From: Leucoraja erinacea
Lineage: Eukaryota
DNA: 64,000 nucleotides
Direction: 5' to 3'
NCBI RefSeq assembly: GCF_028641065.1
Contig: NC_073378.1
Span: 69,006,001-69,070,000, forward strand
The notes beneath the pieces are model-generated. The model had not been told where the DNA came from. It saw only the letters and a list, made by a program, of their open reading frames with translations, and searched no databases. Below, piece after piece: positions 11,881 to 53,089 of this stretch. A program made the translations under genes and the position numbers. The number at the start of each line of letters is the position of its first letter. The first letter of the stretch is position 1.

Positions 11881-12763
11881 CAGAGCATGGCTCAAGCACA
11901 TTTATGGCAACACAGACCATAGGGTGAAGGTCAGGTTTTTCAAAAGCAGCAAGATTATTCACTCAATAATCTTGAGAACAAGTGACTATTTAAATATCCA
12001 GAATCTTGCAAGCAAATTCCACTTCATGTGGCTGTTACCGTTATTTATTCACTTTAGATCAGTCCATTGTTCCCGCAACATCTAAGCAGTCTAGAGGACT
12101 TGAATGATGATTATTTTGTTCTAACAATTTGCCACAAATCAATTTAGGTCTGAACCGAGATCTACCTGTTTTATGTAATTTAGAACCAAGCCAGTAATCT
12201 CTATATACGTAACTCAGAATGCATAAGTCGTCGATGCTAGCAAAAGCAAGGAATCTGTGGACTAGACTTGATAAACCTAGTGACCTAATAAACAGACACA
12301 ATCCTTAATGACAATACAGACAAGTTAACAACTCAGTGGATAAGAAGCCGATTGAAATTTCTGGGATTATTTTTGCACCTGTACTCACATTGCCTGCAGC
12401 ACATGGCAGAAGATCATGCAGGTCAGGTAATTTCATCCTCTGATTTCCAGGGACACATTTGCTGGGTAAAATGACCCCTCATGCACTGCTGGTGAACATC
12501 CCGCCATGCAGTAACACACCAGTATAGAATTAATATTAACATATTGAACAAGAACACTTTAAATAAAGCAGGTGAGCAGAGTCATTACAAAATGGACCAG
12601 GAGAGACACAAAGAGCAGGAGTAAATCAGCAGGTAGGCAGCTTCCCTGGAGAACATGGATAGGTGGTATTTTGGGTCAGAACCCTTCTTCAGCCCCCAAC
12701 ATCCCCCCACCTGCCTGAGCTTCCTTCCAACCTCTGTTCCCCTCTGACCTCAGCCCTCACTTT

Positions 12764-12990
12764 TGTCATAATTTCACCATCCCTCCGACCTTCCTCTTTC
12801 AGATGCAGAAAGGTCAGTCCTCAACACATTTAATGTATATAATGTAATTAGCATATGTTATGTCTTGTGCAAGGGGACGCATGCGCTAGAAGAGACTCAT
12901 GGTGGCGTCCAGCAATAAAGAAGCTTGTTAGTTTACTCCTGTATCTGAGAGTTCTTTTGAGTCAGTTCCAAGTACCCAAAATACACTACA
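12764..12990 (+). repeat. 5' LTR
   Basis: TGTCATAAT...ATACACTACA with internal AATAAA; repeated at 16933-17159. Confidence 0.9.
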
Positions 12991-12992
12991 AT

Positions 12993-13010
12993 TGGCGACG
13001 AGGATGGGAT
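12993..13010 (+). promoter_or_regulatory. Primer-binding site, tRNA-Ser(GCT)
   Basis: TGGCGACGAGGATGGGAT is the reverse complement of the vertebrate tRNA-Ser(GCT) 3' end ...ATCCCATCCTCGTCGCCA; lies 2 nt after the LTR end. Confidence 0.85.
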
Positions 13011-13769
13011 AGAGTTTGTGAACTCGCCCACAGAACTGTTTTGCAACACACAGGATTGTTTAACAGTTTAAACTGTAGATGCGGAGTTGTATTGTAGTTG
13101 TTTGTGACCGGGACAAGAGAGGCCTGCAGATCCCACTATGCCGGGGACTGCATTTAAAACATCAGCTGTACAAGTCGGCGAGTTTTGTGAGGCTATCTCT
13201 ACATTGTGTCTACATGGCAAGATGTCGTCCTTCGGATTGTCACTCATTTTAGAGTTTTCTTTTGTCAAATTCCTCAAGCTGAATAGTCTTTGTATAAGTT
13301 TTAGGTGAATTGTTACACCAAAACACACAACAACAGCACGAAGAGGATAAAAGAACAGAAAAGGAAAGAAGAAGGACTGTCAGAAAAAAATAAAGTTGTG
13401 TTTGGAAACAAAGTGGAACGGCACCAAGCCAAAAGATTTGGCGCCAAACGATTTTGGATTGGCGCCAAAGAAAAGAAAGGTTGGAACAGGAAGCAAGGAA
13501 AACAAGTGGGGCAGTAAGTAAGTGTCATCGAAGAAAGCAGCCGAAAGCTGGAAGCCTAACCAGCAGGACAGCGACAGCGTCAACTTACCTGGAACATTTT
13601 CCAGGGCTGTGTAGGTAAGGCAAAGGGGCAGAAGAGGCCCAGCAGCTGCCACCGACTTTGGACGTTTTACAGCGCTGTGTAGCCCACAACCAGGCCCAGG
13701 AGCCGCCAACGACGTCGAGTGAGGGCCTAGTACCGGGTAGGTCACGGACAGGTACAGTGAAGCCACCGA

Positions 13770-14330
13770 CGAAACAGAGTAAGCCCGGCTGGGAGAAGAG
13801 TCAACCCGGTTGAGGGAGAAAGCCGGCTGCGTGAGAAGCGGACCAGCAGAGTAAATAAAAAAAATAAAAAACTGGCTGCGAGAGGAGCGGACCGGTCGTG
13901 AGAGAAAGCCCAGTCACAAGAGACAGCCGTGAGCAGAGAAAGCCTGGTTGGGAGCAGAGTCAGCCCAACTGTGAGCAGAAAAGAGGGTCCGGCTGCACAA
14001 GGAAGCGGATTGGCCGAGGGGGAAAGCCCGGATGTGAGAAGAAGTCCAGCCCCGAACAAAGAGTGGGTCCGCACGAGAGAAGCAGAACAGCACTCAAGCA
14101 CTTCAGCCCGATCGGGAATAGAGTCAACCCGGTCGTGAGGGCTGTGGAGACAGCGAGCAGGCAAATCAGCAGAGCAGCAGTAGTCAACTTGGCAGCGAGC
14201 CAATGGCAGCAAAAGTAACGGTGAAGCCCGGAGGAGCCAGCAAAAGCAGCAAAAGTGGAGGTCTGGCGAGGCCAGCAGCAAAAGTACCGGTGGGGACAGC
14301 TCGAGAGGTCGAGAAGGCACTGGAGTCCAT
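13770..14330 (+). repeat. Degenerate purine/GC-rich tandem repeats in the LTR element leader
   Basis: Recurring AGAGTCAACCCGG, GAGAAAGCCC, GTGAGCAGA and CAGCAAAAG motifs. Confidence 0.6.
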
Positions 14331-14595
14331 AGGCCGACAATATAACGGGACTGTTTGGATGTAATGCATTGGTCACTGTTATTAATAGTAAATCTGTGTG
14401 CATAGCAGGAATATGATTAAAATGTTCTAAATGTCTATTAACATGAAATGTTGGTTAATAGTATAAATGTATTATTATAAGAATTAGTAATAGTCAGTGG
14501 GCTGGATCACTTCTTAGTGTGTAGAAGGATTAAGTCTAATACAGAATACACAGTGAGAGAAAAGAAGATAGTGCACCTGAATAGCAACAGGTAAC

Positions 14596-15204
14596 ATGGC
14601 TTTTCAAATTGTAGGAAATGTGCCCCAGTTAAAATATGGGTGTAATTTTGAGAAATGGACCAAAGTCTTGGAGGCTTGTTTCATTTCCAATGATATCGCT
14701 GCAGAGGAGAAGAAGAAAGCATGGTTCATATTAGGCTTAGGAAGAGAGGGTTATCAGACCTTACATATGTTACTGCTGCCAGCCAAGCCCACAGATAAAA
14801 TGTATGAGGAGTGTAAGGAGGCTTTAATGGCTTATTTCTCGCCAAAAGCTCCAAGGGTATCCAGAGGCAAGGAGCCTGAACTAAAGAGGACAGAGAGTCT
14901 CTCAAAGGACCAAGGTCAAGTGCAAAAAGACAAAGGTCAAGTGCAAAAGTACAAAGGTCAAGTGCAAAAGGACAACGGTCAAATGCAAAAGGACAAAGGT
15001 CAAGTGCAAAAGGACAAAGGTCAAATGCAAAAGGACAAAGGTCAAGTGCAAAGGGACACAAGTCAAATGCAAAGGGACACAAATCAAGTGCAAAGGGACA
15101 CAAGTCAAGTGCAAAGGGACACAAGTCAAGTGCAAAATGACACAGGTCAAGTGCTAAGGGACAAAGGGCAAATGCAAAGTGGCAGAAGTCAAGGGCAAAG
15201 ATAA
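14596..15204 (+). CDS. Gypsy (Mag-like) Gag N-terminal domain plus Q-rich heptad repeat
   Basis: WTKVLEACFISNDIAAEEKKKAWFILGLGREGYQTLHMLLLPAKPTDKMYEECKEALMAYFSPK fits the Mag/K02A2.6-type Gag N-terminal pattern; followed by 13 KDKGQVQ-like repeats. Confidence 0.75.
   Translation: MAFQIVGNVPQLKYGCNFEKWTKVLEACFISNDIAAEEKKKAWFILGLGREGYQTLHMLLLPAKPTDKMYEECKEALMAYFSPKAPRVSRGKEPELKRTESLSKDQGQVQKDKGQVQKYKGQVQKDNGQMQKDKGQVQKDKGQMQKDKGQVQRDTSQMQRDTNQVQRDTSQVQRDTSQVQNDTGQVLRDKGQMQSGRSQGQR
14905..15177 (+). repeat. 21-bp coding minisatellite, 13 units
   Basis: Consensus AAGGACAAAGGTCAAGTGCAA; in frame; drifts from KDKGQVQ to RDTSQVQ. Confidence 0.95.
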
Positions 15205-16418
15205 ATTGTCATCCAAAGGGAAACCCTAGCTATTCAAGCTGCATTCAGGGCTATGAATGTATGGAAAGAAATCCGGAACAAACAGAAGGCAGCAATGGTA
15301 ATACAAGCAGCATTTAGAAGGCATAAAGTATATCGTCAATACAAGGCAATGAGATTGGCAGCTATACTAGTACAAACCCATTATAGGACACCTTCAAATG
15401 GAAAGTGATCGCAAAACTTACATGAAGGTACGCAGAAGCGTTGTACTGCTTCAGGCAGCCTACCGTGGCATGCTTGTTTCGAAGGCAATTGCGGGGCATG
15501 CATAAATCTGTCAGGGTCCTACAGACTTATTATCAGATGTATAAACAGCATCAGTATTTTAAGAAACTACGCTGGTCTGCCATTGCTGTACCGCAACGAT
15601 ACAGAGCATGCCAGATAAGAGATGTCCAAGTGAGACAGTATAAGAGTTTGAGAGAAGCAGTGGTTTGTATTCAGGCCTTATGCCGCGGGATCAAAGCCAG
15701 AGTATTGGTAGAGAAAACCAAGGCAGCATGCTGTATTAAGTCATTCATAAGAATGTGCATTACAAGAAAGCATTTATTGATGCAAAAGGCGGCTGTAGTC
15801 ACTCTGCAAGCTGCATACCGTGGTTACCGATTAAGGGTATGGCACAGAGCTATGCGACAAGCAGTCATTTCGATCCAGAGATGCTACAAAGCATGTAAAA
15901 TAGGGCATTCCCAGTTTGTGCAATATCAACCAATAAGGGATGCAACTATTACCTTTCAAACTGCCTACAAGAGTATTGTGGTTAGGCAGTGGGTTAAGCA
16001 AAAGAGAGCTACTGTACTCTATATGAGTTGGTATAGGAAAGACCTAAGGAGACAAATAGATGCACAACAGAAAAGGCTGAAACGATACAAAAGGCTTAAA
16101 CGATATAGGAAAGACTTCCTCAAACCGATTTATATAGCAGTTGTAGTGCAGTATCACTACCGTGCTTATGTAGTAAGAGAAATATACCAAGCGCAAATCA
16201 AAGCCATTGCTGTATTGCAAGGACAGTATAGATCCTACTTCTTGATGAATAACCAGAAAGGTGATTTAAGAAGACAAATAGAGGAACAGCAGAAAAGGCT
16301 TAAACGTTGCGAAGAACGGTTAAATAAATGTGTGACGATGAGCAAAAAGCTGTTAACAGAAAAGTCTAAAGAAGAGAAGCTTGTTGGTCGAGACAAAAGT
16401 GTGCAGGACCGATTGTGA
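15205..16418 (+). pseudogene. Captured ASPM-like IQ calmodulin-binding repeat array plus coiled-coil tail (frameshifted)
   Basis: [99 protein letters not shown] with roughly 23-27 aa spacing and basic linkers; frameshifts near 15390 and 15478. Confidence 0.8.
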
Positions 16419-16886
16419 TTAGGACACTTCAGTATAGTCCAGCATGGAGCTTCCTTCACTGAGCAATGGACAAATGTTTATGCATTGCAGAATGTCCTTA
16501 TACAACAAGAGCAGATAAATATGCAGCACCAGGAAATTGAGCAACTGAAAAACTAAAACCAGCAGTCATGTGTCAGATCCCACCTACAAATAAGGAACAG
16601 AAACAGAAGAAATGTTAACTTTAGCGGAATATCAAGAACAGGAAGAAATCTGCAAATTAGATTAGGATATTTAAAAAGGGAAGAGGCAGAGATACGGGTA
16701 GAGCTAGAGTGATTAGAAAGATGAGTGGAATGAACCCTTATAAGTGCTAAGTTTAGATACAGTTTACAGTTATGAGGATGTAATGTCAGATGACTGTAAT
16801 AATATAATTTTGCAACTGCGTGTTAATCAATTATATATAATGTAGTAGAAATGGTGTTATTCGCCTCCAAGCTAAATGGGGAGCAG

Positions 16887-17159
16887 TGTAATGTATATAA
16901 TGTAAATGGTGTTACCCTCCAAGTAAAATTATTGTCATAATTGCACCATCCCGCCGACCTTCCTCTTTCAGATGCAGAAAGGTCAGTCCTCAACACATTT
17001 AATATATATAATGTAATTAGCGTATGTTATGTCTTGTGCGAGGGGACGCATGTGCTAGAAGAGACTCAAGGTGGCATCCTGCAATAAAGAAGCTTGTTAG
17101 TTTACTCCTGTACCTGAGAGTTCTTTTGAGTCAGTTCCAAGTACCCAAAATACACTACT
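16887..17159 (+). repeat. 3' LTR
   Basis: Starts TGTAATGTAT directly after the PPT-like AAATGGGGAGCAG; 16933-17159 matches the 5' LTR. Confidence 0.85.
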
Positions 17160-29269: not shown

Positions 29270-31426
29270 TGTAGTGGCCTGGACGAGGTCAGGAAAAGGC
29301 CAGACGCCCGGCGGGTTCAAACAGTAGTCTTTTAATCCCTACAGCGAGAGTACACCACACACACATCTCGAGAGCACTAAACTCAGGGTCGTCTAGAAAC
29401 CCCGTGGCAGACCAATGCCCCGTCCCTCAATCGGTGAGGGGGCTGATCCATGGAGTGGCCTACCCCCCAGGGACCGTCACAGACCCCCCCCCCAAGTACC
29501 CGAGGGACGAAACGAACAGGAGGGCGTAGACGGCGGCCAGCCCGGGTGCACACCACGCCCGGCCCCGGAACACGCGACTGACCAACAGTTGCAGGGGACG
29601 GAGTAGCCAGAGAAGGAGGTACCCTAGACAGAGGCCTCCCTCGCTTACGGGGCTGTGCTAACAGCACTGGCTGATCAATATCAATATGTGCTGGCTTCAG
29701 CCGCGCAACTGAACCAGTCTCTTGCCGACCCCCCATGTCCAGGATGAAAGTGGATGAGCCATGTTCCAGGACCCGGAAGGGACCCTCGTACGGCCGCTGG
29801 AGAGGTGTCCAATGCACATCCCTGTGCAGGAAGACAAACTGGCAGTCCTCCAGAGCAGAGGGTACGTGCAGACGGAAGGACCCATGACAAGACGTGGGCA
29901 ACAGCGCCAGCTTGCCCACCATCTGCCGAAGACTTTGAAGAGCGTCCGAAGGCTGCTCCACCTGGCCACATGCCGGCGGGATGAATTCCCCAGTCACCAT
30001 CAACAGAGACCCATACACCTACTCGGCGGAGGTGGAGGGCGCTTGACATCCACGATCAGTGAATGGGCTCGAAGGAAGTCGGCGCCCAGCAGCGGCTGGG
30101 AAACGTCGGCAATGATGAACTTCCACGAATAGGAGCTGCGGCCAAAGTTGAGGGGGATGGTGTGAAACCCATAGGCGAGAATAGCACTCCCATTCGCCAT
30201 AGTGAGGAGGGAGCCTTGTTTGCCCACATGGATGTCAGCGATGGAGGGAGGCAGAACACTCACTTCCGCACCAGTGCCCACGAGGAATCGACCTACAGTG
30301 TGGCGATCCCAGGCGAAGACACGATGAATTGTGCCGGCCGGCAAAGGAATCACTGACGACTGGCCCCTTTGTTTCCCGGGAATAAACAGGGTGGGCGACA
30401 TAGCCTGGCTGCAGCTCCCCACAACAATGGTAATAGCAGCAACCCCCTTTGCTGGCGTTTGGTGGAACTGCAGGCGAATTAGGCTGGTTTGAATGCCAGT
30501 GACCTCTCCTGGCATTGGGTGGAACTGCAGGCTGGCCGTGCTGGAAGGACGTGCCTGCAGTGGAATGGGCAATGGCGACCGGATTTTGCCGCAGGGGGCC
30601 GACTGGGAGCAGTGGAAACACGGTCGATAGCGTTCCCGACCTGCTCTGAGCCTCCAAATGCTGCAGGAAGGACGGTCAGCACATCCAGATTCTGATGGCG
30701 GGAATTCCACACCTCGTCGGCGTGTTCACCCAATGCCCGCATGTCGGTAAATGGATCCCTGGTGAGCTGCAGGCGGATGTTGGGCGGTAGCTGCTGCAGG
30801 TAGGCGTATTTAAATAGAAAACAATGTTCATGGTCTCCCATTAGGGTGAGCATGTCTTCCAGGAGGGCAGACGGCCGGCGGTCGCCCAGGCCGTCCATTC
30901 TGAAAATCCGAGCTGCCCACTCGGAGTCACCTAGGCCAAACCTCCTGATAAGGAATTCCTTAAGGCCCCTATATTTATTTGCTACCGGGGGGGCCATGAG
31001 GAAAGGCTTAACTCGCCTCGCAGTCGCTTGGTCAAGCGCGCCAACTACTTAATAGTATTTTGTCTCATCTGCTGTAATACCTCTCACAGCAAACTGTGCC
31101 TCTGGCCTGCTGGAACCAGATGTCAGGTTCTTCGGTCCACAAAGTTGGGAGTTTCAGCGCAACAGCGTTATTATCCATCACGATGCGTGATGAACGGCGT
31201 GGGGTCACCAGTGTAGTGGCCTGGACGAGGTCAGGAAAAGGCCAGATGCCAGGCGGGTTCAAACAGTAGTCTTTTAATCACAACAGCAAGAGCACACCAC
31301 ACACACACCTCGAGAGAGCACTAAACTAAGGGTCGTCTGGAAACCCCGTGGCAGACCAATGCCCCTGTCCCTCAATCGGCGAGGGGGCTGATCCAAGGAG
31401 TGGCCTACCCCCCAGGGACCGCCACA
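29270..31426 (-). mobile_element. Gypsy LTR retrotransposon (CsRn1-like), internally deleted
   Basis: LTRs 29270-29481 and 31212-31426 (TG...CA); 4-bp TSD GTAT; tRNA-Trp-like PBS TGGTGACCCC (31201-31210, minus); G-run PPT; gag VALKLPTLW...WFQQA; protease FLVGTGAEVSVLP; integrase C-terminus PYEGPFRV...RLKPAH; RT and RNase H absent. Confidence 0.93.
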
Positions 31427-31466
31427 GTATCTTAATTTATTTTGAATATTTAATTGATTTAATTGT

Positions 31467-33889
31467 TGTTATATTCCGGACGGCAGAATGAAGAACACGA
31501 TTTACACATTGTTTACCTGGATCACGAGAGAGAGTGATTTATTAACCAGCATTCCCTGCTTATATCAAACACCAACTCATTAACATACACATGAATATAT
31601 ATGAATACATTACACTGCTCTCCTTTTAAAAAATATTAAATCTAATTACTCAGTTACAACTTTGTTGTTGTGATACTTGATTGAAACCAGTATTTATTTT
31701 ACATATCTACACATTTTTGTTTTACTTGTGCAGTGAGTTATTTAACTTACAAACCTAACCTGATGACCGGTTTACGGATCCTGCCTGATCATCTATTTTC
31801 TTGTCCGTCATTCATTATGTGGGAGATTACTACACCTACACCATAACTCGAAGCATCACAAGCAAGTTTCATCTTGCGTGTCGTGTCGTAGTGAACAAGG
31901 AGGTTGTCACTTGTCAAGTTTTCCTTGCAGATGTCATTTGCACGTTGCTGTTCCTTTCCCCACGTCCATTTCACATCTTTTTTGTAGCAGATGATGTAGT
32001 GGCTTTAGCACAGTTGCTAAATCTGGAAGGAATCTTGCATTGAACTGCACCATCTCAAGGAATGATCGTAGCTCTGACACATTGTTGGGTTTTGGAGCAT
32101 TCATTATTGCTTCAACTTTCGCCTCAATGGGGCGAAATCCGTTGGCAGCTACTTTGAGTCTAAGGTAGACCACCTCTGACTGTGCAAATGCACATTTACC
32201 TTGTCGCAGTTTGACATTGTGGCAGTTCAGTCTTGTGACAACTTGCTCGAGGATTTCCAGATGTTCTATCGTGCCCTCTGTGAATATCAGTAGGTCATCC
32301 TGGATGCGCACACAGTGCAGAATGCCATGACATTTTGCCCATGACAGACTGGATGATTTTCATCAAGGATTTCACACCTTAGGGAAGCTTTGTATATGAA
32401 TAGAAGCCCTTATGTGTATTGATAGTCAAGTACCGGTGACTTTCCTTGTCGACATTGAGTTGGGTGTAGGCGCGAGACAAATCCAGTTTAATGGAGACTA
32501 AGTTCTGCGTTCAAATCATGTGAGGTTGGTAACAGATATTGTTCATCGTCAACGTCTTGGTTGATTGTGATTTTGTAGTCACCACATAGTCACACAGTTT
32601 TGTCGGCCTTGGGTATGGCCATAATTGGCGTTGCCCAGTTACTCTGGTCTGTCTTCACGAATACTCCATTCCGCTCTAACCTGTCATGTTTTTCCACCAC
32701 TTGTTGCTTTAGTGCATACGGTACAGGTCTTGGTCGACAATACACAGGTTGCACATCTTGCTTAAGTCGAACATGTGCAGAGTACCCTGTTATTCCTGTG
32801 TAACTGTTGGCAAATATTTCTGCATGTTTGTGGTAGCAATCTTGCATGCTTTCTCGAAAGTCAGATCTAGAGTGTTCATGGGTTTGGACTGAATTCGTTC
32901 ATCCACTAGACCACAAACAAATCTGTCACGAAGTGTGCATCTGAGAAAAGGTCCAAAGTTACAGTGCAAAGTTATGTTTTTCAAGGCAACAATGTACTTA
33001 TTGATTGTCTCAATCTGCTTCTGGTTTCAGGTGCCAAATTTATGGCTTTCTGCAATTTCCAGAGGCTTTAAATGCTTCTCCAGCTTTTTCATAATGTCAT
33101 TGAATGGCATGTCTTTTGCCTTTATGGGCGCAAGGAGATTTACAATTGTGCCGTACACTTCTGGACCAATCTCCGTGAGCAGAATAGCTTTAATGCGTTC
33201 TCAAACGGCTTTATTTGTTTCAGTCACTACCTATCCTTCACTCCTAATCTCCATTATGTTATTTGCCGTAAGAAACATGTTCACTCTCTCCATATATGAG
33301 CTGAACGGCTCTCTACTCTTGTCGAAAGTGCCAAGGTTTCCGATCTAGCACGTGGACGCCGCCATCGTGCCGTTCTCTTTTTCCCAATTTCCTGTCTGTT
33401 CTGGTGTAACAATTCACCTAAAACTTAGCTGTACAAAGGCTATACACAAAAAAAAACTCAGTTTAAAATCCTGTACAATCCCAAGGATGCCATCTTGCCA
33501 CGTAGACAGAACATAGAGATAGCGTGACATACTCCCGATGATTTGTACAGCTGCTGTTTTAAACTACAGTCCCATACATAGAAGGATCTACGGCCTATCA
33601 TGCCCAGTTCGCAAACAATTGCGACAAAGCTCTGTATTTACTGTTTAAAATGTTAAACAATACTGCTGGTTGCAAAACAGTCCTGCACTGTATTTAAAGG
33701 ATGAGTTCGCAAACTCTATCCCGTCCTCAACACCAATTTTGTTATATTTCGGACGGCAGAATGAACAAGACTTACACACTGGTTGCCTGGATCATGAGAA
33801 AGAGAGATCTATTACCCAGAGATTTATTTCCTGCTTATATTGAACACCAACTCATTAACATACACAAGAATATGTATGAATACATTACA
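31467..33889 (-). mobile_element. Gypsy LTR retrotransposon (Mag-like), deleted and degenerate
   Basis: ~148-bp LTRs 31467-31614 and 33740-33889; PPT AAAAGGAGAGCAG; Ser-type PBS; gag (LLTEIGPEVY, LRDRFVCGL); RT (RPVPYAL, WATPI, IQDDLLI); RNase H (LACDASSYGVG); integrase missing; TSD not resolved. Confidence 0.9.
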
Positions 33890-48325: not shown

Positions 48326-50582
48326 CCAGCAACTTTCCTAAAACTATTAGATTCTTGAATCTGTAGGAAGGAACTGCAGATGGTAGAGTAACTCAGAGGG
48401 TCAAGCTGCATCTCTGGAGAAGAGAATTAGTCACTTATTCAATTTCTCCAGATATGCTGCCTGACCTGCTGTGTTACTCCAGGATTTTGTGTTGATCTGC
48501 TGCACAATCCTAATCCTACCTCGACAATGAAATACTATAAAGAACCCTTTTTTACTGCTATGGACGTGTTTTTTGGTTCTACGTGTTTTGTACTAATAAA
48601 ACTTGATGTTTTGTTCAGTAATGTTTTTTTTAATTTAATTGTATTGCAGACTTTTTGTGTGTAATTTATTGATAAATAGTGTATTTGTGCATTTACCTGA
48701 ATCAGTGTGCATGTGATGCTGCTGCTAGCAATATTTTCATTGCATCTGCACCTGACCATATTTTTGCATATGACAATAAACTCAACTTGACTTCAGATAT
48801 TTTGTTTCTTCAAACCGTTCAGAAATTTTCACCTGCTGGGTTCCTTTGTCAGATGTGGTGCCGTCAGCTGAATCTCAATATAATCTTCAATTGGAAAATG
48901 TCATCGAGTGGCAGCAGGGAGGATTTGAGTTGGACTGAAGATAAATGGCTCTGCAAGTGAAAACAAGACAAAGCATTCCTTCAAAGACACTAGGGGTGAA
49001 GGGTGAATGCTTTGGACTTAGAAGTGGTATCAAGGCTTCTTGCTGCACAATGGACATCAACCATTCCCAGCTGTGAGAAACCACTAAGTCTCTCTCCACT
49101 AGTTTCTGCAAACAAATAGGTGACACAGGGGGAGGACATTCTTCCCCTGGCAATAGAGGCTCTGCGATTATAGCTGTCTGCTCCAAGCTTGAAATTTAGA
49201 TCACCTTTTGATACTCAATTTTCCTTGCCTCTTCAAAAGTCCACTATATTAACATTAACACAAATATTTCCACTCCCTGAAGAACCCAATAGCCTTTCAT
49301 TAACCCCCATAAAGTGTTGGTAAAATGTCTGTGCTCTGATGCATACTACGCAATGTGGCATTTGACTTCCATTGAGAAGAAGCAGCATTTGGAAGGTGAA
49401 GAGGTAAAAAGACTGAACACTCAATTAGTGGCTAAGTAGGTCGAGTTTCAGATTAGAAAAGCTGCTTCAGGCATGAAACGACTTACACAGTTTTAAGTAG
49501 CACAGTGATCTTGTTTTCACCCTTCTACTTTGTGAATACTTTCTAATACAGAGCATCACATCCACATGCAGATATTAAATAAAATGCTAAGACCTAGAAA
49601 TCTGTCCCAAATCTACAGACTCCTCTATTCCACAGCTTCATATTTTATTGAAGGTTCAAAAGGAAAGGAAATCCTGAAATGCCATAGAGCCAAATACTTT
49701 TGAAGTGTAGTTAATACATTTGTTGGGACTTTGTCTGAGCCACACAAAGACCAGAGCCATTGGCATAAAAGATATTTTTTCAGCACAAACAGATGTTCAG
49801 GAGTGGACCTGGTGGAAGACACTCTCCAGGGAGAATTGTTCAGTAGAATCTCCTGAACTCAAAGTATATCATGTTTTTATACACATAAGAACAAAGACAA
49901 CATCCGGTGATTTAATGCAACTTCAACAGTTGCTATTGTATTGTTTACTTCAATATATTTTGAGTGCAGATAAATGAATCTGTCGAATTTCATATTTACA
50001 AAAGGGATACATTGTGACTGACAAGACCACCAAACACCTTTGTTGGGACAAAGTTTTCCCATTTATGGTTCCAAATGCTTCTGTAGCCAGAAACCCCATA
50101 TATTCAAGATTAACGTTGTGAGGGCTAACACTCTGGACATACAATTGCTCTGATTACCGATTGATGGAATAAATATGCCTATGATCATGCTCAATGTGTG
50201 AAGTAACAAAATACTCAGTTTGGTCTGAAACCTTCCTTGAACTCTGTCATGCTGGTGCAAAATAACTGAGTTGAAAATGTCTGCTGCAAGCCATATGGCA
50301 CAACCCCAGTGTCTGCAGGTTTGGCCATGGCTTACAGGAATGGCTCATGTACATATCAGTTTGCGAATGATATCTCTTGAGTGACGTTGTGCTGTGGACC
50401 AGTGGCCTGTGTTCTGCAGACTGTATTGTTTGTTTACAATGCCGTACTTTTAAGCTCAAAAATTGTCTCAAAACAGTTCAAAACTGCTTGTACTTCATAT
50501 TTTGAAATAGCTCTTGAAGATATGTTCTCATTTGTATTAATGGCTGCTTCCTCCATAACTCCTGAAGGATGTCCTACACCTA

Positions 50583-52148
50583 CAGTGCATTCAGGAAGTA
50601 TTCAGACCCCTTCACTTTTTCCACATTTTGTTACGTCACAGACTTATTCTAAAATTGATTAAATATATATATTTTTATCATCAATCCACACACAAAAACC
50701 CATATTAAAAAAGCGAAAACCGGTGTTTAGAAATTTTTGCAAAGTAATTAAAAAGAAATAACTGAAATATCACATTTACAGAAGTATTCAGATCCTTTAT
50801 TCAATACTTTGTTGAGGCACCTTTGGCAGCGATTACAGCCTCAAGTCTTCTTGGATATGACACTACAAGCTTGGCACACCTGTATTTGGGTAATTTCTCC
50901 CATTCTTCTCTGCAGATCCTCTGAAGCTCTATCAAGTTGGATGGAGTACGTCGATGCGCAGCTATTTTCAGGTCCCTCCAGAGATATTTGATTGGGTTCA
51001 AGTCCGGGCTCTGGCTGGGCCATTCAAGGACATTCACAGACTTGTCCCAAAGCCACTCCGGCATTGTCTTGGCTGTGTGCTTAGGGTCGTTGTCCTGTTG
51101 GAAGGTGAACCTCGGCCCCAGTCTGAGGTCCTGAACTCTCAGGAGCAGGTTTTCATCAAGGATCACTCTGTACTTTGCTCTGTTCATCTTTCCTTCGATT
51201 CTGTTCCTGCCACTGAAAAACATCCCCACAGCATGATGCTGCCACCAACATGCTTCACCATAGGTATGGTATTGGCCAGGTGATAAGAGATGCCTGGTTT
51301 CCTCCAGATGGGACAATTGGCATTCAGGCCAAATAGTTCAATCTTGGTTTCATCAGACCAGAGAATCTTGTTTGTGCCTTTTGGCAAACTCCAAGCGAGC
51401 TGTCATGTGCCTTTTACTGAGGAGCGGCTTCTGTCTGGCCACTACCAGAAAGGCCTGATTGGTGGAGTGTTGCAGATATAGTTGTCCTTCTGGAAGTTTC
51501 TTCCATCTCCACAGAGGAACTCTGGAGCTCTGTCAGAGTCACCATCAGGTTCTTGGTCACCTCCCTGACCAAGGCCCTCCTTCTCCGATTTCTCAGTTTG
51601 GCGGGCGGCCAGCTCTATGAAGAGTCCTGGTGGTTTCAAACTTCTTTCATTTAAGACAAAATGGAGACCACTGCGCTCTTCGAGACATGTAATGCTGCAG
51701 AAATTGTTTTATCTGTGTCTCGACACAATCCAGTCTTGTAGGTGTACGGACAATTCCTTCGTCTTCATGCCTTGGTTTTTGCTCTGACATGCACTGTCAA
51801 CTACGGGACCTTATAAAGACAGCTGTGTGCTTTTCCAAATCATGTGCAATCAATTTAGTTTACCATTAGTGGACCAATCAAGTTGTAGAAACATCTCAAA
51901 TATAATCAATGGAAACAGGATGCACCAAAGCTCAAATTTTAGTGTCATAAGAATGTAAATGTGATATTCAGTTATTTATCTTTAATTACTTTGCAAACAT
52001 TTCTAAAAACCTGTTTTCGCTTTTTTATTATGAGGTATTGTGTGTAGATTGATGATAAAAAAAAGAATATAACCAATTTTAGAATAAGGCTGCGACATAA
52101 CAAAATGTGGAAAAAGTGAAGGTGGCTGAATACTTTCTGAATGCACTG
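50583..52148 (-). mobile_element. Tc1 DNA transposon with long TIRs
   Basis: TA target duplication; CAGTGCATTCAG...CTGAATGCACTG termini; TIRs of about 200 bp. Confidence 0.95.
50801..51768 (-). pseudogene. Tc1 DD34E transposase, frameshifted
   Basis: MKTKELS start, [39 protein letters not shown] (catalytic E replaced by K), RLEAVIAAKGASTKY. Confidence 0.92.
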
Positions 52149-53089
52149 TAACTAAAAGTATAATGATAGGAAACAAAGAAGCCAGTTTGCACACAGCTAG
52201 CTCCTGTGATAATGACATTATTGGAAGAATACTGTTGATAACTCTTCTGTTTTTCTTTGCAAAAGCTCTAAACTGAGTTATTTGGCTCTGAACCATTGCA
52301 TTAGCTTGGGTACGGTCCCAATTCTCTATCCTACCTCATCGTGGATATTGTTTTTTTTTCTCTGGAACAGTTATGCTACAATGCTGAGTACTATATTCTG
52401 CACACTATATCTTCCTTTTTGCTCTACCAATTGTACTTGAATTTGGCTTGATTTTATTCAGATATAGTATTATTCGATATAATTGGATGACATGCAAGCA
52501 AAAACGTTTCCCTGTACCTCAGTACACGTGACAATAATATCCCACCCAATGATCATAGTGCCAACATTGTAGCACCCTTGCAGAATTAATGTGACTGGCT
52601 GTCATTGTTCTGGTCATTAAATGTCTGGGTTGCATTTCAATCCACAACTCTGCCTTACATCTGATATCTCACCAACAGTATGAAAAAATAGCTGCATTCA
52701 TAACAATATATATAAGAAATACAAAAAAGTGCTTGCCTTTTTTTATGTTCAATAATGCCACTCAGTCTATGCATTTGCCGTGCTATTGGTTGTATATATT
52801 TGTAGTGTTCTATGTAAGGAGCACCTATACCCCTCATGTAGTCTCCTCAGATGATCGTCTCATGGCAGAAAGATCTTAGACTGTAGTCCATGCTCACAAT
52901 GCATTTTTGTTGACACCACCAAGCTTCAATGCATCATGTAGTGCATTCTCATGTAGCCTGTAATGTGCCAGTCGGCAAAATTCCCTTATGGGCATTGTAC
53001 TTAAAGTCCAACAAGTTTTGGGCATGTCAACATCAACTTTTCGCTAAGTTTATGATCGTCCACCAGTAGATGTTTATCTCAATATGAAA

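Follow-up and report, generated by a model that had tools for sequence, protein, structure and literature searches.

In the ETn/MusD system, a non-autonomous LTR element is mobilised in trans. In the soybean element SNRE, parts of the LTR were reportedly swapped between related partners. TR-GAG, LARD and mouse VL30 carry LTRs, a PBS, a PPT and target-site duplications without pol, retain a gag remnant and are mobilised in trans, as set out in parts of PMC13570524 and PMC4859993. Non-autonomous endogenous pararetroviruses of grasses have noncoding regulatory sequence in common with their partners through recombination (PMC5491270, in part). In LTR-mediated retroposition, partial mRNAs from more than one host gene replace internal ORFs via template switches at microsimilarities; the process is known in zebrafish, chicken and mammals and, in the portion of PMC5131818 used here, yields mostly single retrocopies. 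Cross-packaged RNAs give rise to new lineages, very distant pairs being rare and amounting to a handful of cases (sections of PMC6894440). On how non-autonomous LTR elements choose or change their helper, the cited part of PMC13570524 favours generalist mobilisation.

Here we describe the IQ element, found in a window of 64,000 nucleotides of Leucoraja erinacea DNA (the window is the whole stretch that was analysed), and its relations to two Gypsy families, G and P (Table 1). A sequence-only reading had noticed that this element shares its PBS, leader, PPT and LTR tip with a Gypsy copy in the same window, and had taken the leader for a conserved packaging/dimerisation signal and the Gypsy family, which it called Mag-like, for the parent or trans-acting helper of the IQ element. 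That family label rests on the wording of the sequence-only reading, the gag start and the tRNA-Ser PBS, and we keep it as an assumption.

Table 1 Features of the IQ element and of the family G copy in the window
Feature	Position	Strand	Remarks
IQ 5' LTR	12831..12990	+	P lineage, about 162-bp form; first bases missing in window copy
Active PBS	12993..13010	+	18 nt complementary to tRNA-Ser(GCT), G-type continuation
Leader, very probably captured from Gypsy family G	13011..13324	+	absent from leaderless IQ copies and from 20/20 fetched P loci
Relic of own U5 end and second PBS	13325..13348	+	decayed here; intact in L190, L254 and L256
P-derived own leader	13349..14595	+	purine-rich, indel-rich
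gag N-terminal fragment (gag-N) from P	14596..14870	+	72% nt to L225
21-nt tandem array (7-residue repeat)	14904..15180	+	
Captured ASPM-like large IQ-repeat exon piece	15165..16263	+	82-83% nt to L173:7949-8990
Captured spliced TLK2 coiled-coil coding sequence	16263..16694	+	residues about 134-291 of P0029
PPT and U3 tip	16874..16896	+	last 16 nt (16881-16896) identical to family G
IQ 3' LTR	16887..17158	+	contains 68-bp copy of 5' flank, window copy only
G copy PPT and 3' LTR	31465..31630	-	
Broken gag and RT/RNase H remnants of G copy	31800..33365	-	protease region and integrase deleted
G PBS (decayed) and native leader	33391..33735	-	ends about 25 nt before gag start
G copy 5' LTR	33740..33889	-	133/150 to own 3' LTR, K 0.124

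Results

The leader of the IQ element and that of the window's G copy are collinear, as the sequence-only reading had described, and every block that it listed lies inside their alignment. A local alignment of window 12976-13329 (+) with 33752-33393 (-) had 278 identical positions in 334 aligned columns, with a further 46 gap columns, and scored 251, against 21.5 ± 2.6 (maximum 35) in 500 dinucleotide shuffles. Significance persisted beyond the PBS: with the PBS removed, 227 of 270 positions were identical and the score was 221 (shuffles 19.8 ± 2.5, maximum 30). BLASTN matched the leader pair at E 8e-55. Outside the leader, the two elements had just one further significant match, the 24-bp PPT/LTR-start junction (22/24, E 2.6e-4), where in both GAGCAG at the end of the PPT is followed by TGTAATGTAT. 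The likeness of PPT end and LTR tip pointed out by the sequence-only reading is thus borne out, as is its remark on the LTR interiors, between which no alignment was found. In the window's G copy the PBS has decayed and is unlike that of the IQ element at 4 of 18 positions; the U5-PBS spacer is 2 nt in IQ and 4 nt in G.

We use G for the Gypsy family represented at window 31465-33889. Gaps against full-length copies show that the integrase region is missing altogether from the window copy, together with about 750 bp of gag/protease, and its RVT_1 match (E 3.8e-6) is below the curated cut-off. Without protease region and integrase, this copy is therefore unable to act as a helper itself. Full-length G copies are about 5.1-5.8 kb long, with gag, RT and integrase regions, and match the gag-RT-RNase H-integrase pieces of the P element L225 in the same order at about 40-50%. 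The distance from leader end to gag start, short in the window copy (about 25 nt), is about 55 nt in other G copies, and a deletion that removes about 36 nt from the leader's 3' portion is common to five young G copies. A 24-mer common to the IQ and G leaders occurs at 144 places in the genome; 50 of these, fetched without selection by likeness, comprised 44 G copies and 6 of the IQ lineage, and there was no third family with the leader among those 50. Adjoining the G copy, window 29270-31316 (-) holds a second Gypsy-type element, with 105-bp direct repeats and DUF7041 and aspartyl-protease matches. Elsewhere, long inverted repeats at window 50581-52150 surround a transposase-like frame (50801-51337, -), an element that we take to be Tc1-like.

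The IQ element has the paired TG..CA LTRs, PBS, PPT and target-site duplications of a non-autonomous LTR retrotransposon. Copies are about 4.2 kb long, with LTRs of 162 bp, sometimes 217 bp, and 5-bp target duplications; an LTR pair was present in 16 of the 20 copies fetched first, and the duplications were visible in most. RT and integrase gave no match inside fetched IQ copies, though the family is dispersed and multi-copy: its leader gave 464 candidates, and the 40 that were scored (window included) were all at least 92% identical and lay on many contigs. In the window copy, the 5' LTR is identical to the 3' copy at 217 of 227 positions (K 0.043-0.046). The tRNA-Ser PBS pattern occurs at 18 genomic places, and both of the two that were checked are tRNA-Ser(gct) genes.

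Some copies have structures of their own. Window 12763-12830 is duplicated at 16932-16999 inside the 3' LTR, which was seen in none of 20 other copies. Tandem 55-bp units of PPT and LTR start occur in the P/IQ lineage (window 16780-16930; L066, L067, L121, L159, L200 and L238), and the 162-bp or 217-bp LTR form is set by which PPT primed. In the IQ copy L191 (400-430), an almost full 18-nt PBS is fused straight to the repeat array; this copy is without both leaders and gag-N, yet has the LTR pair.

Searches with TLK2 and with the U5-PBS pattern, which returned IQ copies whose LTR and PBS run straight into the own leader, led us to family P. The own leader lies directly 3' of the PBS both in these leaderless IQ copies and in P. 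L225 is an autonomous-type P element, with Pfam matches to Retrotrans_gag, RVT_1, RT_RNaseH and integrase in Gypsy order, and it has the LTR (76-79%), the own leader, gag-N (72%) and the 3' region in common with the IQ element. In tblastn, the gag-N fragment matched P (68% over 47 aa) and none of five G copies. No BLASTN match to P was found in any of the four G copies tested; protein identity between the families is about 40%, and the G leader was found in none of 20 further P loci. By sequence, these matches mark Gypsy family P as the ancestor of the IQ element, which is a non-autonomous LTR retrotransposon. G cannot be called its parent, as had been proposed: its similarities, from LTR and own leader to gag N-terminus and 3' region, are to P instead, and the shared LTR and internal remnants of a classical autonomous/non-autonomous pair were not found with G. 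P is rare (23 RT candidates) and G abundant (506 leader candidates, in a pool that overlaps that of IQ). P was still active and not extinct; only three of its copies are datable, at K 0.025 (L238), 0.050 (L225) and 0.071.

The cargo of the IQ element comes from two host genes. The genome has a single ASH-domain match, and the host exon at L173:7949-8990 lies about 37 kb downstream of it; the large IQ-repeat exon is therefore called ASPM-like. The TLK2 piece is continuous where the genomic TLK translations P0046 and P0050 run into intron; it thus crosses exon borders and derives from spliced RNA. A short TLK2 duplicate is present at 16041-16091. Window 14596-16694 reads as a fusion of gag-N, the 7-residue repeat, ASPM IQ repeats and the TLK2 coiled coil, and in some copies gag-N, array and IQ repeats form one open frame of up to 433 residues. 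The dN/dS of the ASPM cargo was 0.41 (CI 0.24-0.71) in the master lineage versus 0.68 (0.51-0.90) in young copies; with these intervals overlapping, the values are only suggestive of selection in the master lineage. A protein search with gag-N had P0085 as its sole match (XP_055489032.1, 'ASPM homolog isoform X1', skate). P0085 starts with the gag fragment and is the product of an element copy, so that its ASPM label is likely a mis-annotation; as a practical point, copies of the IQ family get read as genes.

Reads of the IQ family were present in RNA runs X22 and X24, at the family level and with no DNA control, mostly from one strand and thin over the captured leader; run X23 had no reads of the IQ family. 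Five X22 reads skip window 13808-14002, a GT..AG-bounded part of the own leader, with 35 other letters at the joint, reflecting either a splice or the structure of another copy.

We next consider when and from where the leader was gained. In a tree of the ASPM cargo (47 copies with at least 600 nt of exon, rooted on the host ASPM exon; bootstrap not fully settled), all 28 leader-bearing rows form one clade (100/99), which sits at the tip of a ladder formed by the 19 rows in which the leader is absent or the 5' end unseen. Immediately 3' of the captured leader, a relic of U5 end and PBS was found in every leader-bearing copy read. In L190, L254 and L256, the end of the G leader is followed by the U5 tail and then by an intact second PBS, and in L101 the second PBS has partly decayed. 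In a leader tree that also included four badly truncated rows, the captured IQ leaders nest inside G diversity and group with the donor-type G copy L123 (99/97; LTR K 0.031), while AU tests on this tree did not discriminate (support 28 and 67). Seven places carry a diagnostic 19-mer, and these are exactly four early IQ intermediates and three G copies. One late clade and intermediates with both PBSs together indicate a single capture of the leader, its source being a young G subfamily. Contigs from four public runs with four organism labels (X3, X10, X17 and X16) bridge the junction of G leader and own leader, extending at least 31 nt to each side, and the junction is therefore neither an assembly error nor confined to one organism label. 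The 3' limit of the cassette falls shortly before the start of G's gag, and only stretches of 12, 4 and 1 nt have been lost from it. Capture of a G cassette into a P-derived element, in that direction, is very highly probable.

In the account that we propose, the P-derived IQ element acquired from the distant Gypsy family G a PBS and a 340-bp leader, which came to lie ahead of its own PBS, likely by template switching in a particle shared with G RNA. Minus-strand synthesis would have run through the PBS of the IQ RNA into U5 and then, by way of a short ACA-rich match, switched to a co-packaged G leader at its 3' end; plus-strand transfer would have closed at the tRNA-Ser PBS common to both families. 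Such a double template switch would be the simplest mechanism, a two-step route at the DNA level being the alternative. After capture, the second, native PBS decayed and the G-side PBS was kept.

Among the first 100 of 215 matches to the U5-PBS pattern, 34 were young leader-bearing copies, 3 had a G-type PBS on an old U5 and 63 were P-type. Of 25 P-type places fetched, 17 were LTRs of a BEL/Pao family, which would bias any estimate of copy-number gain after capture. In this BEL/Pao family (DUF1759, Peptidase_A17), an LTR of 1.2-1.3 kb embeds about 750 bp of P's PPT, LTR, PBS and leader. L224 is a whole, full-length copy (LTR K 0.016); most of the other places (L192, L193, L199, L201-L204, L206-L209, L223 and L226-L229) look like solo LTRs, several with 5-bp duplications.

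RNase H cleavage and integrase binding both take place at the PPT/U3 junction, and convergence there is therefore expected under a switch of helper. G's exact 16-mer was present in 25 of 30 readable leader-bearing IQ copies (39 fetched) and 23 of 32 readable G copies (64 fetched), and in none of 16 readable IQ copies with no leader seen (27 fetched) or of 9 readable P copies (21 fetched). The PPT (CAG) half changed first, being found in 5 of the 16 IQ copies with no leader seen. To judge from these copies, the likeness of the IQ junction to G is derived by stepwise convergence and not inherited. Convergence takes only 2-3 substitutions at labile sites, and the P copy L245 has a G-like U3 tip. 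IQ shares PBS, leader and PPT/U3 junction with G; it does not share the U5 tip, which has changed away from both P and G, or the spacer, kept at 2 nt in 34 of 35 IQ copies versus 4 nt in G.

LTR divergence placed the leader-bearing copies late. Median K was 0.038 for leader-bearing (n = 33) and 0.072 for leaderless IQ copies (n = 12; Mann-Whitney p 0.0007), single values being noisy with LTRs of only about 150 bp. From this set L091 and L195 were dropped as spurious pairs, L113 as a tandem duplicate, L106 because it nearly duplicates L105, L127 as rearranged and L224 as BEL/Pao. We relied on the unsplit count for G, since a young/old split made by eye is partly circular: 12 of 34 dated G copies have K ≤0.05. 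The age comparison envisaged in the sequence-only reading thus found an autonomous relative whose activity overlaps in time with that of the IQ element, as a helper's should.

The position of the leader, from the PBS to just before gag, fits a candidate packaging region. Covariation across copies, which the sequence-only reading had named as a check, did not rise above the level of shuffles. In 41 leaders (85% column identity, a low divergence that gives little power), 2 of 50 pairs had changes on both sides, and 132-178 of 500 shuffles reached the observed values; the covariation term of the alignment fold was -0.64, with no excess over shuffles. Fold z values for the whole leader were -0.9 and -1.6. 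In 120-nt windows from 11 copies, a fold signal was seen only beside the PBS and on both strands, the best window reaching z -4.9 in one of the 11 and being equal on the antisense strand. In one hairpin the IQ lineage shows two changes from G-U to G-C, a number too small to carry weight. Between hand-chosen G subfamilies, net divergence of the leader was 0.023 (CI 0.012-0.037), lower than that of the LTR (0.061) and 3' UTR (0.058) but similar to that of integrase third positions (0.028); first and second codon positions diverged less than the leader (0.006-0.008). These values point to modest constraint on the leader in G. After capture, the leader branch (0.027-0.036) was not shorter than the cargo branch (0.019). 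The description of the leader as conserved holds for the likeness itself, which is real, but its cause is recent capture and not deep conservation.

Discussion

Taken as a whole, our account of descent from P, late gain of a G cassette and a likely move to G's enzymes is probably right. We consider it somewhat probable, from the sequence comparisons, that G was the main later helper of the leader-bearing IQ copies. The cassette would give recognition by G Gag, whether for packaging or for dimerisation with G RNA, while the PPT/U3 junction, now matched to that of G, would suit G's RNase H and integrase. The earlier suggestion of a trans-acting helper would then hold for family G and the late leader-bearing subfamily, where ages overlap and the junction converged; it does not hold for the window's own G copy, an old one (LTR K 0.124) that has no integrase. 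Whether the captured leader holds a packaging determinant we regard as evenly balanced.

The strongest competing explanation is neutral hitchhiking: the template switch occurred by chance and the cassette spread with a master copy at a well-expressed locus, while P or any available Gypsy machinery went on mobilising IQ. IQ retains P's LTR body, 2-nt spacer, own leader and gag-N, all of P's cis-elements, and P could therefore still have mobilised it; the P copies of K 0.025 and 0.050 fit this, as do the missing covariation and a leader that evolved no more slowly than the cargo after capture. The parallel entry of P's PBS and leader into the BEL/Pao LTR also means that such captures need not be helper switches, and generalist mobilisation without sequence likeness is argued in the part of PMC13570524 cited here. 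Against hitchhiking stand a junction that reached G's exact 16-mer in the same lineage, the preservation of the G-side PBS while the native one decayed, and a cassette that stops shortly before G's gag with so little lost, and we consider it unlikely.

More doubtful still is that the cassette was useful for something other than packaging, by supplying a full 18-nt PBS or elements of a downstream promoter, of splicing or of translation, with the helper unchanged. The P-type PBS pairs over only about 13 nt, compared with 18 nt for the G-type, and the folding signal is confined to the first 120 nt beside the PBS, both as this explanation would have it. But an 18-nt PBS without the G leader also arose in L191 and in one P copy, so 340 bp are not needed for it, and convergence at the far end of the element is left unexplained. 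The version of the sequence-only reading, in which the IQ element is a deletion derivative of G with the leader as a conserved remnant, draws on the common leader, PBS class and PPT/U3 junction but has next to no probability, being ruled out by the P origin of LTR, own leader, gag-N and 3' region, by a cargo tree in which basal copies are without leader and by intermediates in which the relic second PBS marks an insertion.

A change of helper from P to G would make this family a fossil record of that change, in which a packaging leader was captured, the element's own primer site silenced and the junction tuned step by step; that all of this holds jointly is conceivable, at slightly less than even weight. 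If so, the 340-bp cassette would mark a packaging determinant that is portable and belongs to a vertebrate Gypsy lineage, and the fusion of gag, ASPM and TLK2 driven by it would be a selected product. States before, during and after capture are preserved in one genome in which both candidate helpers are present, so that sequence-specific partnership becomes testable, and the ends of the cassette give natural boundaries for a candidate packaging region.

In the literature searched, whose coverage is incomplete without Repbase/Dfam, we found no description of the IQ family, nor any case in which one LTR family captured the PBS-leader of a distant one. Known non-autonomous/helper pairs usually have the LTR in common, whereas IQ and its presumed helper G have only the leader and the PPT/U3 junction. 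As is reported for SNRE, a non-autonomous LTR element took cis-sequence of an autonomous family by recombination and then amplified; unlike SNRE, IQ kept its LTR, a PBS-leader cassette was inserted that left two PBSs, and the donor family is only about 40% identical in protein. The pararetroviruses resemble IQ in that their shared noncoding region nests with the youngest partner clade, but they are plant elements undergoing repeated homogenisation, whereas IQ is a vertebrate LTR retrotransposon with one dated insertion, fossil intermediates and a change of donor family (PMC5491270, as far as the cited part goes). Compared with the retroposed mRNAs in the cited portion of PMC5131818, IQ carries a two-gene cargo, which some copies join in frame to gag-N, in a lineage of several subfamilies whose candidates number in the hundreds. 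Unlike the cases reviewed in the sections of PMC6894440 used here, recombination between distant families was confined to the PBS-leader. The IQ element thus differs from described systems in the capture of a PBS-leader cassette with the LTR kept, in the distance between donor and recipient, in the change of family and in its preserved intermediates.
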